Positions 41,914-49,299 of a DNA stretch of 64,000 nt are shown piece by piece. Within the stretch, counting starts at the first letter, position 1. Every line of letters begins with the position of its first letter. The stretch covers positions 7,567-71,566 of the forward strand of contig CAMYVO010000003.1 of assembly GCA_947302485.1 (NCBI GenBank). Direction: 5' to 3'. This DNA is from an uncultured Clostridium sp. (GTDB lineage Bacteria; Bacillota; Clostridia; TANB77; CAG-508). The position numbers and the translations under genes were made by a program. The notes beneath the pieces were generated by a model that was given only the letters and a program-made list of their open reading frames with translations, did not search any database and had not been told where the DNA came from.

Positions 41914-41920
41914 AATTAAA

Positions 41921-41966
41921 AAATAAACGTAGTATATTTAAATTATTATACTACGTTTATTTTTTT
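41921..41966 (+). terminator. strong rho-independent terminator after rfbA
   Basis: 16-bp stem AAATAAACGTAGTATA ... TATACTACGTTTATTT followed by TTTTT. Confidence 0.7.
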
Positions 41967-42121
41967 AAATGTAATAAAAATGTAAAGAAAATGTAATTAT
42001 TATTAAAACGGTTGAGAGAGTAAGAAAATCAAAAACATATTTTAATAGTATAATTGAATTATGATTTTTTTAATGATAATATATAAATGAAATAATGGAT
42101 TTAGACTATTGGGGAGGGAAA

Positions 42122-45100
42122 ATGAAAAAAAGTAAAATTAATTTTTTAATAATTCTAATAATTATAGTAATTATTATGGGAATAAGTGGTTATATTTTAA
42201 GATCAAAAAACGATTCTACTTCTGTTAATAGTGATGATGTCATTAATTTAAGTGAATGTTCTGAAGACTTTATGAATAATTATTTTGATGAGATGAGAGA
42301 GATTCAAGAGATTGATAATAAAGATAATATATTGATTGTTACTTCAAAAAATAAAATAAAAGATGGATATGGAGCATCAAAAATTGTTGAAGCACCTAAT
42401 AACCAATATTATCTGCAATATAATACTGAAAATGAAAGATATAATGCAATTCAAGAGTTCGAAAAAGATGAAACTATTATTAGTGTAGAAGAAAATTTAT
42501 ATTATACAATTAATGAAAGTGACTATAATTCTTGGGGAATTGAAAAAATGTCACTTGATACGGCAATAACTGTTACAAACGAGAAAGAACTAAATAATGT
42601 AACTGTTGCAATAATAGATACTGGGTGTGATATAGAATTATTTAATAAATATTATAATGGGAAATTGTCTGAAACGTATGATGTATTAAAAGAATCAACA
42701 CAAACAATGAATGATGAAAATGGACACGGTACTCATGTTGCAGGAACAATAGCAGAAGGAACTCCACAAAATGTTAAAGTTTTTCCAATTAAGGTTTCAA
42801 CAAATGGTAGTTTATATTTTAGTGATGTAATTACTGGAATTAATTATATAACTTATTATGAAAAAGCTGATGTTATAAATATGAGCTTTGGAGGATATGG
42901 CTATAGTGAAGCTTTATATAATGCTATTGAATCAGCTAAAGAAAAAAACATTTTAAGTGTTGCTGCAGCCGGAAATGATAACACTTCAAGAAAACACTAT
43001 CCATCTTCATATGACAACACAATCTCTATTGCTTCTGTTAATTCTAGTTTAAATAAATCTAGTTTTTCAAATTATGGATCTGATATAACATTTGTTGCAC
43101 CTGGATCAAATATAAAAAGCATAATGAGTAAGAAAGCTTCTCTATCTGAAAATAGTGATGGAGATGATGATCACGAAATAATAAGTGGAACTTCTATGGC
43201 AACTCCTCATGCTGTATCTGCTGTTGCAATTTTAAAAAGCTACAATAAAAATCTTAATTTAGATAATACAATAGATTTATTAAAAATATATGCAACTGAC
43301 CTTGGAGATACAGGATGGGATATGTATTATGGATATGGAATGATTAGTTTTAAAAACGCTGAATTTGCAGATGGTGAAGATAATGATGAATATGGAGTGT
43401 TTAAAAAGAAAAAAGAAAATCCAATAAGTAGAATAGAAATAAATACTCCAACATTAACAGAATATAACTATGGATCAATTTATAACTTATTAGATACACC
43501 TATTAATTTATACTTTAATAATGATGAATATATAACAAAAAAACTATGGGAAATTGATGAGTTAGAAATAACTGGATATGATGCCTATAGTTCTGATGAA
43601 CAAATTATTACAGTTAAATTTAATAATTTAACAACAAGTTTTACTATTACAAATCCACAAGAATTTCAAAGTGGGTGGGAATATAATGTTCTTGACGAAA
43701 ATAGTATAGAACTAACATTATATAAGGACAATAGTAGTAATATTGGAAAATTATATATTCCAGAAACAATAAATGAATATAAAGTAGTTTCACTTGCAAA
43801 TAACTCAAATTTAATTTCTAAAGTTTTTGCTAATTCAACCGATAGATTTTTATTTAAAGAAATAATTTTACCAAAGTATTTTACAAACCTAGGAAGAGCT
43901 TCACTTATGGGATTATCTTCATTACAAAAAATTACAGTTTTAGCAGATAATATTTCTGTAGGAGAATATGCATTATATGGATTAACAAAGATTACACAAT
44001 TTGATGGATTAATAATCGAATTAGGAGAAGGAGCATTTAGAGGATGCAGATTGATAAATAATATTAGATTATCGGATTCTATTTCATCAATACCTAAACT
44101 TGCCTTTTGTGGATGTGATAATCTTGAAAATATAAATATACCTACTAATGTTACATCTATTGAAGATCATGCTTTTGAAGGAGATTATAAATTAACGGAA
44201 ATAGATTTTCCAGAGGGACTAAAAACAATAGGAAAAAGCGCATTTTATTCTACAAATCTTGAAGTTGTTATATTGCCTAATTCAACTGAAACAATTAAAC
44301 AAGAGGCTTTTTGTAATGCACATATTATTTACTTATCAATCCCTAAAAACCTAACTTCAATAGGAAATAATGCATTTTCTGAATGCGCTTCATTAGAAGT
44401 TATTCTTGTTGATGAGGAAAATACTATATATGACAGTAGAGATGAATCTAATGCTATTATTCAAACAGCAACAAATACACTTATAAGGGGAACAGCCAAT
44501 ACAACTATTCCGAAAACGGTAACAGCTATTGGAGATAAAGCATTTGATTATGATTTAAGAATTGATGAAATCGAAATTCCAGAAAGTGTTACACAAATAG
44601 GAAGTTATGCTTTTTATGGATGTGATTATTTAGAAAAAATTACAATTGGTAGAAATATAGAAACTATAGGAGAAAATGCTTTTAAATATTATTCTGCAAA
44701 ATATAATGTTGATGGTGAAAAATTAATACCAACCTTCTGGACATATAATGATGCATATGCAAAAACATATGCAATAGAAAATAACTTAAATTATGAGACA
44801 AAAGACCCATCATATGTTTTAGTGAGCACATCTAAAACAGAGTATAACGCATTTGATTCGGTAAATAATGATGATATTATATCTGTGAAGCTATATTATG
44901 ATAAAGGATACCTAAGTGGTACAACATATAATGAACTAAAAAAAGTTGCAGGAAGAGAAGAAATAGTTGAAGATGGATACAATATAAGCTATATTAATAA
45001 TAGAGATAGCTTTAGGTATGGTGATGAATATTATACTATAAGTGGTGACAATGAGCATGGAGAATCATATTCAAAACAAGTAAATGTGGTAATATCTAAA

Positions 45101-49163: not shown

Positions 49164-49204
49164 AACACCTTGGATTCTTTTTTGAATCCAAGGTGTTTTC
49201 TTTT
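49164..49204 (+). terminator. strong rho-independent terminator after the GC-rich gene
   Basis: 14-bp stem AACACCTTGGATTC-TTTTTT-GAATCCAAGGTGTT followed by TTCTTTT. Confidence 0.75.
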
Positions 49205-49208
49205 ATAA

Positions 49209-49238
49209 TTGATAAGCATTAAAAATTTAAGATATAAT
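49209..49238 (+). promoter_or_regulatory. candidate sigma-A promoter for rfbC-rfbB
   Basis: TTGATA-18 nt-TATAAT directly after the terminator, about 60 nt before the rfbC start. Confidence 0.4.
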
Positions 49239-49299
49239 GTTGAATTTATATATTTAATATGATATATTCATATAAATGAAAGTTGAAAGGAAGATATAC

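Follow-up and report, generated by a model that had tools for sequence, protein, structure and literature searches.

A probable long-resident epsilon/zeta-type module between rmlA and rmlC of the dTDP-rhamnose operon in uncultured gut Clostridia

In contig CAMYVO010000003.1 of an uncultured Clostridium sp. the genes of the dTDP-rhamnose (rml) operon lie in two halves, rmlD-rmlA and rmlC-rmlB, and the question raised by this locus is how the 7.4 kb between rmlA and rmlC came to be there. According to the map of open reading frames (ORFs) and to Pfam and NCBIfam scans of the 64,000-nucleotide stretch analysed here (the window), rmlD and rmlA are followed by a gene for an S8-LRR-ChW surface protein, a small ORF, a gene for a Zeta_toxin-family kinase (zeta), an orphan gene termed ORF259 and finally rmlC and rmlB. 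An earlier interpretation drawn from the window alone (the sequence-only reading) had given this split, its gene content and its order correctly, and had proposed that a surface-protein gene and a mobile remnant stabilised by a toxin-antitoxin pair were inserted step by step, a new promoter then rescuing expression of rmlC and rmlB. Comparison with related loci points to another history. We consider it probable (roughly 60%) that an epsilon/zeta-type module has long been fixed in the rml operon, that it is inherited vertically and sometimes lost, and that its flanks collect mostly cell-envelope genes.

The two halves of the operon are readily recognised. On the plus strand, rmlD (dTDP-4-dehydrorhamnose reductase, 40130–40996) matches TIGR01214 with 289 bits (cutoff 224) as well as PF04321, rmlA (glucose-1-phosphate thymidylyltransferase, 41029–41913) matches TIGR01207 with 468 bits (cutoff 361), rmlC (dTDP-4-dehydrorhamnose 3,5-epimerase, 49300–49878) matches TIGR01221 with 261 bits (cutoff 156) and rmlB (dTDP-glucose 4,6-dehydratase, 49906–50874) matches TIGR01181 with 483 bits (cutoff 365); all four products thus score above the equivalog cutoff of their own TIGRFAM. 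An exact-sequence look-up for the window RmlA and RmlC matched no record, and a protein search found a protein on a 108-kb public contig (P0001) that is 100% identical to the window RmlA. The nearest other RmlA proteins are 83–89% identical and come from human-gut metagenomes and metagenome-assembled genomes (MAGs) labelled 'Clostridia bacterium'. Adjacency of rmlA and rmlC is found in most of 80 surveyed genomes, among the matches listed, in which RmlA is at most 69% identical to that of the window.

The pair at the centre of the interval consists of the small ORF (47053–47277, plus strand, start ATG at 47053, 74 amino acids) and zeta (47281–48204, plus strand). Relatives were found by scanning metagenome contigs with a zeta alignment, followed by tblastn on all fetched loci. 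At an identity of 55% or more to the window zeta, 18 of 18 loci, representing at least eight lineages, have the gene in the rmlA–rmlC interval and preceded by a small-ORF homologue; a 1.2-kb contig (L102, zeta 56% identical) has no flank present and stands outside this count. The orthologues in this position are 55–81% identical to the window zeta. Among more than 60 loci with a zeta less than 50% identical none has an rml gene within 8 kb, and most still carry a small-ORF homologue just 5' of zeta. The distances between the zeta proteins of eight rml-linked lineages are correlated with those of RmlA+RmlC (r = 0.78, Mantel p ~0.0008), and the neighbour-joining trees of zeta and of RmlA+RmlC show an identical main split. 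The clean positional split and the correlation of distances together argue for co-inheritance and not for repeated insertion. In a tree of the concatenated Rml proteins the zeta-bearing lineages form one clade, with L081 and L001 outside. The genomic surroundings of the related operons differ, with glycolysis genes in L082 and ricin-lectin genes in L087, which argues against these contigs being recent lateral copies of one island. On these sequence comparisons nothing in the rmlA–rmlC interval is older or better conserved than the pair.

A recent insertion would be in keeping with the existence of relatives in which rmlA and rmlC are uninterrupted, and such relatives, which the sequence-only reading had suggested looking for, do exist: L081, L178 (RmlA 87% identical) and L001 carry contiguous rmlD-A-C-B. 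The contiguous state of L178, however, arose by deletion. Its rmlA–rmlC spacer (L178:1898–2008, also in L179 and L180) contains a mini-ORF of 36 codons, of which the first 24 correspond to the N-terminus of the small ORF (MNNFVKMDVAIELLADKISKTTKK). We take this mini-ORF as a deletion scar, implying that the rest of the small ORF and the whole of zeta were secondarily lost, and a weaker trace of the same type of junction is seen in L081. Decay of a different kind was found in five independent contigs (L104–107 and L134), where zeta is interrupted exactly in the Walker-A motif (P-loop), GAQPRIG and a stop codon being followed by LIGYSK (broken zeta at L104:4925–5843; L105, L107, L134:7844–8762; L106 likewise). 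The small ORF is intact in these contigs and the other 247 zeta codons are open, so the change looks like a recent inactivation of the toxin. With the pair at one site in at least eight lineages, co-diverged with the operon and absent from L178 by deletion, the description of a mobile remnant held in place by a toxin-antitoxin pair has to be given up. Recent stepwise insertion with a newly created promoter is largely refuted, and we judge it very unlikely; further evidence on either side of it is given below with the cargo genes and the transcription signals.

The module is embedded in different ways in the lineages that carry it. In L082–85, L099–101 and L103 the order is rmlD-A-[75 amino acids]-zeta-C-B with spacers of 13–52 nt, too short for separate promoters: the pair follows rmlA after 13–26 nt and precedes rmlC by 24–52 nt in these compact lineages, and operon-like packing without a promoter of its own is observed in L082, L098–L101 and L103. 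The closest relative on a long contig, L086 (RmlA 89% identical), shows the order ChW protein-rmlD-A-[74 amino acids]-zeta-C-B; here the small ORF is preceded by a terminator and a TTGACA/TATAAT promoter, and a further terminator follows zeta. In L087 the order resembles that of L086 with a 5.8-kb dlt-like cassette added between zeta and rmlC. L093, whose zeta is 81% identical, displays the layout of the window (ChW-protein end-[74 amino acids]-zeta-ORF259 homologue-rmlC), its flanking genes having diverged from those of the window at synonymous distances (dS) of ~0.4–0.9, which speaks against a recent assembly of the interval. The split layout that the sequence-only reading had set against its own proposal, should all close relatives display it, is seen in L093 but not in the other relatives.

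We assessed the identity of the two proteins separately. Zeta matches PF06414 with 125.8 bits (cutoff 22.3, E = 2e-36) and aligns to the pSM19035 zeta toxin 1GVN at E = 2e-20, with the equivalents of K46, D67, E116, R158 and R171 conserved. In the alignment with 1GVN chain B the corresponding stretches are GAQPGSGKGS/GGQPGSGKTS, TDDY/DNDTF, FEVT/IEGT, ERYE/ERYE and GRF/ARA, and these catalytic and binding residues are invariant or nearly so in an alignment of 25 sequences of the zeta family. The protein also matches solved PezT structures; orthology to PezT was not found, the NF041574 model giving only 55.4 bits against a cutoff of 470. In PHROGs one unnamed family is matched by zeta only, and none of the defence-system models in PADLOC matches the small ORF, zeta or ORF259.

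The small ORF lies on the same strand as zeta and its stop codon is separated from the zeta start by 3 nt. Homologues of 61–77 amino acids (32–77% identity) are located directly 5' of zeta in 52 of the 86 loci listed, in very different genomic contexts. Three helices are predicted for the small protein at low confidence (single-sequence AlphaFold2; predicted local distance difference test, pLDDT, 64). Searches of the small protein gave no Pfam match even at E <= 10 and no PDB, PHROG or PADLOC match, a profile of 16 homologues found no Epsilon or PezA chain in the PDB, and Foldseek with the pLDDT 64 model returned no significant match. The small protein is accordingly a candidate antitoxin by position and co-conservation, not by homology, and 'epsilon-like' applies to its position only. 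The pair had been described as a perfectly promoted epsilon/zeta pair, and of this description the promoter (12 of 12 consensus positions) and the zeta family hold while Epsilon homology of the small ORF does not. It is best called an epsilon/zeta-type module with a putative new antitoxin family, and not a PezAT orthologue. In four loci (L109, L113, L123 and L126, upstream of zeta at ~8001) no stop codon separates the frame of the small protein from the 3' end of a miaB-like radical-SAM gene, with which it is continuous, and this may represent a translational fusion or an overlapping internal start. In two others (L091 and L092, 6800–9083) distant homologues with 38–40% identity form a [72 amino acids]-zeta-zeta tandem inside the core pyrH-frr-uppS-cdsA | rseP-polC string, another envelope-precursor operon.

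Zeta and PezT toxins phosphorylate UDP-N-acetylglucosamine (UDP-GlcNAc) and so block peptidoglycan synthesis, zeta toxins being UDP-sugar kinases. With the omega-epsilon-zeta system of pSM19035 and PezAT of S. pneumoniae the window module shares the Zeta_toxin Pfam domain, the P-loop and the catalytic Asp, Glu and Arg residues of the UDP-GlcNAc-3-kinase (UNAG-3-kinase) zeta, a small co-oriented gene abutting the toxin gene upstream, and the inactivation or deletion of the toxin in some lineages, as is seen in other chromosomal toxin-antitoxin modules. It differs from them in that the small protein shows no detectable similarity to Epsilon or to the C-terminal three-helix bundle of PezA, no DNA-binding domain and no omega-like repressor, and in that the module is fixed in a housekeeping nucleotide-sugar operon with which it co-diverges instead of residing on a plasmid or island. 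The fold of the gonococcal antitoxin has been reported to be unrelated to Epsilon, so that antitoxins of zeta kinases need not resemble Epsilon (PMC5923241; PMC10532202), and the gonococcal zeta relative phosphorylates several UDP-sugars, i.e. has a broad range (PMC5923241). The ng_epsilon1/ng_zeta1 system of Neisseria gonorrhoeae (PMC5923241) is therefore a precedent for a zeta kinase with a non-Epsilon antitoxin and a wider UDP-sugar range; unlike the module described here it is plasmid-borne and has no link to rml, and its toxin has the P-loop nearer the C-terminus and an extra domain (PMC10532202). A literature search for zeta toxins linked to rml operons found no paper.

From what is known of the family we infer toxicity, kinase substrate and antitoxin action as follows. 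The common ancestor of a clade of uncultured low-GC human-gut Clostridia would have gained a module of small protein and zeta kinase between rmlA and rmlC, and this module would most likely act as an epsilon/zeta-type type II toxin-antitoxin pair, the kinase phosphorylating a UDP-sugar wall precursor, canonically UDP-GlcNAc, and the small protein blocking the ATP site of the kinase. The module would then have been passed on vertically with the operon, packed and co-transcribed in some lineages, provided with its own promoter in others including that of the window, and decayed in some. In the window lineage the rmlA junction would have gained the gene for a ChW-anchored S8/LRR protease and the rmlC junction ORF259, the latter by horizontal transfer, and both genes have signals of their own.

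Several points weigh against this history. The relatives are metagenomic contigs throughout. Trees of the D-A half and of the C-B half of the operon disagree on the branching of the zeta-less lineages; a single gain of the pair is for this reason likely without being proven, and to some extent each half has had a history of its own. A difference in history between the halves is also indicated by L001, whose RmlA is 69% and whose RmlC and RmlB are 84% identical to those of the window. (The rmlA–rmlC spacer of this zeta-less locus contains a near-perfect inverted repeat with ~32 nt per arm, L001:10865–11012.) The small protein has no detectable likeness to Epsilon or PezA in sequence or structure, its model being of low confidence (pLDDT 64), and toxicity and neutralisation are presumed roles only. 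Toxin-antitoxin modules on chromosomes tend to be patchy, mobile and short-lived; that one is retained vertically for long at a single site and co-diverges with its operon is unusual and could instead reflect a domesticated function linked to the pathway. In the compact lineages the pair lacks its own promoter and is probably co-transcribed like an ordinary member of the operon.

The last two points lead to the main alternative, in which the zeta-like kinase and its small partner would form a regulatory part of nucleotide-sugar metabolism and would have ceased to be, or never have been, a selfish pair. Phosphorylation of UDP-GlcNAc or of a dTDP-sugar, for example, might balance the flux into peptidoglycan against that into rhamnose polysaccharide, with the small protein as inhibitor or regulator. 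Such a role is consistent with the strict rmlA–rmlC position in at least eight lineages while zeta diverged to 56% identity, with the co-divergence with the Rml proteins, with the operon-like packing without a separate promoter, with the occurrence of a distant homologue pair in the envelope-precursor operon uppS-cdsA|rseP, and with the action of known zeta toxins on nucleotide sugars, one of them with a broad UDP-sugar range (PMC5923241). However, lineages with four intact rml genes have lost zeta by deletion (L178), lack it (L081) or carry it with a frameshift in the P-loop (L104–107, L134). In addition, most homologues below 50% identity lie away from rml and other sugar genes, and to our knowledge no member of the zeta family acts on dTDP-sugars. 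We regard a domesticated kinase as unlikely; if it were true, the long co-evolution with the operon would reflect a function in wall-precursor supply and not addiction.

Under the preferred reading of a long-resident toxin-antitoxin module, zeta has kept one site in a nucleotide-sugar operon, following the operon in its history, while its own sequence diverged to ~56% identity. The lineages with freshly inactivated or deleted zeta form a natural comparative series, which raises the questions whether the module is kept by addiction, by a defence benefit or by recruitment into the control of envelope precursors, and whether surface-protein and wall-modification genes of gut Clostridia can settle at its flanks. 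For annotation, a toxin-antitoxin pair in a split operon is not by itself proof of a recent mobile-element insertion.

The largest gene of the interval encodes the S8-LRR-ChW surface protein. Its ORF is open on the plus strand from 42095 to 46948 (1617 codons) and the likely coding sequence is 42122–46948, since the ATG at 42122 lies behind a GGGGAGGG ribosome-binding site and yields an N-terminal membrane or signal segment. Pfam assigns a Peptidase_S8 domain (PF00082, 150 bits), BspA-type LRR, Big_3 and six ChW repeats, and the motifs of the Asp/His/Ser triad (DTGCD, HGTHVAG and GTSMATP) can be read in the translation. At the rmlA/small-ORF junction L082–87 and L098–107 lack the gene, and in L093 the C-terminus of a ChW protein is found at the same junction; the gene is thus missing there from all lineages except, probably, L093. 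It is a later addition to the interval, common to the window and at least one other lineage, and to this extent an insertion of a surface-protein gene had been correctly proposed. By composition it is not foreign: the G+C content at third codon positions (GC3) is 0.12 and host-like, as in the small ORF and zeta, which also have a GC3 of 0.12, and neither the S8 gene nor zeta bears the mark expected of recently arrived DNA. The ChW region of the protein is 47% identical to the ChW protein encoded at 35271–36410, 6 kb upstream, and this cell-wall locus has three ChW-repeat genes in all, the S8 gene among them. We conclude that it looks like a member of a resident surface-protein family that moved or expanded within the locus.

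The second addition, ORF259 (48375–49154, plus strand), is an orphan gene of 259 codons at the zeta/rmlC junction. With 42.1% GC and a GC3 of 0.40 it departs from the window (26.1% GC overall) and from its neighbouring genes (GC3 0.12–0.16), and it is the only part of the interval with a composition apart from the host. The claim of a foreign gene with its own strong terminator therefore stands, and its composition counts in favour of recent insertion. ORF259 has no Pfam, NCBIfam, PHROG or PADLOC match, tblastn against plasmid and phage collections gave no match, and Foldseek with an AlphaFold2 model (pLDDT 93) found no neighbour in PDB and BFVD; ten longer, distant relatives contain no Pfam domain save one that is fused to GrpE. 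ORF259 belongs to a very small family, of which 16 close homologues and, out of 1.84 billion, 193 cluster representatives were found. That it is a real protein gene follows from the conserved motifs of the 16 close homologues, the pLDDT of 93 and a nonsynonymous divergence (dN) well under the synonymous one. An invariant H-x3-D-x3-D...R...D motif hints at a metal-dependent enzyme.

Synonymous divergence between window and L093 is ~2.5 times greater in ORF259 than in zeta and rmlC, and the GC3 of ORF259 in the two loci is 0.40–0.48 compared to 0.12 in the genes of the genome. This pattern fits a GC-rich foreign gene gained before the split of window and L093 and drifting towards the composition of its host, and the GC3 difference marks ORF259 as younger than the pair. 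Selection keeping ORF259 GC-rich was considered and rejected, because the faster synonymous divergence suits drift towards the AT-rich host, although this is not proven. Homologues are located at L093:1511–2296, L094:8001–8834 and L096:8001–8765, so that L094/95 and L096/97 add two unrelated contexts to that of window and L093. In every context the gene is a self-contained cassette with its own TG-extended promoter, hairpin leader, strong ribosome-binding site and GC-rich terminator, and the coding part alone has 42–50% GC within DNA of 25–30% GC. In the window the promoter and two-hairpin leader span 48255–48329 on the plus strand (TTGATT-17-TATAAT with TG extension), the promoter itself occupying 48255–48283. 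The leader region of ~90 nt (48284–48374; L093:1418–1510) folds into two hairpins (z = -3.0 in the window and -4.8 in L093), is 80% identical between the two loci and shows a compensatory C-G to T-A change in the second stem. Rfam contains no family matching 39–52 kb of the window, this leader included; it could be an attenuator or regulatory leader. A combined scenario, in which the pair is a domesticated module gating wall-precursor supply (by way of peptidoglycan/rhamnose flux or a phage-triggered wall shutdown) and ORF259 is an undescribed fold moving among AT-rich gut Firmicutes as a single-gene cassette, seems to us quite doubtful.

We also looked for marks of mobility. No integrase, transposase, recombinase, IS element or tRNA was found in 41914–49299 by ORF map and Pfam scan, and no direct or inverted repeats bracket any segment; repeats around 46949–49208, which the sequence-only reading had suggested as a check, are likewise missing, short repeats occurring only at chance level. 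These results count against a recent insertion. What varies between lineages is the content of the two junctions of the pair. The rmlA junction is empty, holds a 71-amino-acid membrane ORF (L104–107 and L134) or holds the S8/ChW gene, and the rmlC junction is empty or contains a minus-strand small membrane ORF (L098), ORF259 or the dlt-like cassette of L087. The ORF in L098 (L098:8950–9215) encodes ~80 hydrophobic amino acids and has raised GC, and the cassette (L087:11150–16665) comprises genes for an AMP-binding enzyme, a pyridoxal-phosphate (PLP) decarboxylase-/racemase-like protein, a 76-amino-acid carrier-like protein, an MBOAT protein and a 314-amino-acid protein. The two junctions thus appear to collect lineage-specific, mostly cell-envelope genes. 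A stepwise build-up of the interval is borne out in so far as it is composite and relatives are empty, carry the pair only or hold other cargo; the pair, by contrast, was not inserted recently.

It is conceivable that the composite of S8/ChW gene, pair and ORF259 was ancestral as a whole and that all shorter relatives arose by deletion. Deletion does happen at this site, as the scar in L178 demonstrates, and L093 has the full layout as well. Other lineages, however, carry non-homologous cargo (the dlt-like cassette, small membrane ORFs) or spacers of only 13–52 nt without remnants, and tblastn detected no S8 or ORF259 remnants in the compact lineages. ORF259, moreover, with its GC3 far above that of the pair, cannot match the pair in age. 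We consider an ancestral large interval very unlikely. Variable 'plasticity zones' are known inside polysaccharide gene clusters, e.g. O-antigen or capsule loci, and the rml locus resembles them in that conserved sugar-nucleotide genes flank variable cargo and in that its two halves have a mosaic history. It differs in that the variable sites are the two junctions of a conserved toxin-antitoxin module and in that the cargo consists of surface proteins, small membrane proteins, a dlt-like cassette and an orphan gene instead of glycosyltransferases. The split of the operon itself is ordinary genome plasticity, and the noteworthy parts are the co-diverging module and the ORF259 cassette.

Each added unit has its own promoter and terminator, an arrangement that would be expected after recent insertion. 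The strong terminator claimed after rmlA was confirmed at 41918–41965 (plus strand) as a perfect 19-bp inverted repeat followed by a T-run (-19.5 kcal/mol, z = -6.7); a simple terminator scan missed this hairpin only through its AT-rich stem. Since this AT-rich region shows no overall excess of promoter-like hexamers (94 found and 92 expected), weight was given only to near-perfect promoters and to those conserved in relatives. The small-ORF/zeta pair is preceded by a sigma-70-type consensus promoter at 46998–47026 (plus strand, TTGACA-17-TATAAT, 12 of 12 matches), which is also kept in L093 and L086 (TTGACAAA...TATAAT). ORF259 ends in a GC-rich intrinsic terminator at 49162–49199 (plus strand, 16-bp stem and T-run, -24.4 kcal/mol, z = -7.3).

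The promoter adjoining rmlC is present as described (49209–49238, plus strand, TTGATA-18-TATAAT, 11 of 12 matches) and lies within a region conserved in the clade. About 100 nt 5' of rmlC (TATAATGTTGAA...TGATATATTC) are conserved in window, L093, L086 and L087, and this stretch takes in the TATAAT -10 element as well as the TGATATATTC block downstream of it. As this region is kept in relatives without S8 gene and ORF259, the element is older than both insertions and was not newly created to rescue rmlC and rmlB, which removes a further support of the recent-insertion scenario. From these signals we infer the transcript structure: the locus would be transcribed as at least four or five units, namely rmlDA, the S8 gene, small ORF/zeta, ORF259, and rmlCB with the downstream genes.

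The surroundings of the operon are of a similar character to its cargo. Downstream of rmlB we found TagH/TagG-like ABC export genes, a GtrA gene and a GT2 glycosyltransferase gene, and upstream of rmlD two further ChW-repeat proteins, a cadherin-like protein and a CotH protein are encoded; together these genes mark the neighbourhood as a cell-wall glycopolymer and surface-protein locus. With other Gram-positive rml (rfb) wall-polysaccharide loci it shares the four equivalog-level enzymes and the TagG/TagH-like ABC export, GtrA and GT2 genes. It differs from them by the D-A-C-B order, which is specific to the clade of the window among the matches listed, and by the distance of 7.4 kb between rmlA and rmlC. 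Directly 5' of rmlD (35271–40039) lie genes for ChW proteins of 379 and 875 amino acids and for the cadherin-like protein of 282 amino acids, and these three surface-protein genes are followed by a bidirectional terminator hairpin at 40053–40083. ChW-protein genes are again found next to the rml genes in L086 and L105, where they flank rmlD, and this adjacency suggests that ChW domains may bind a rhamnose-containing wall polymer.

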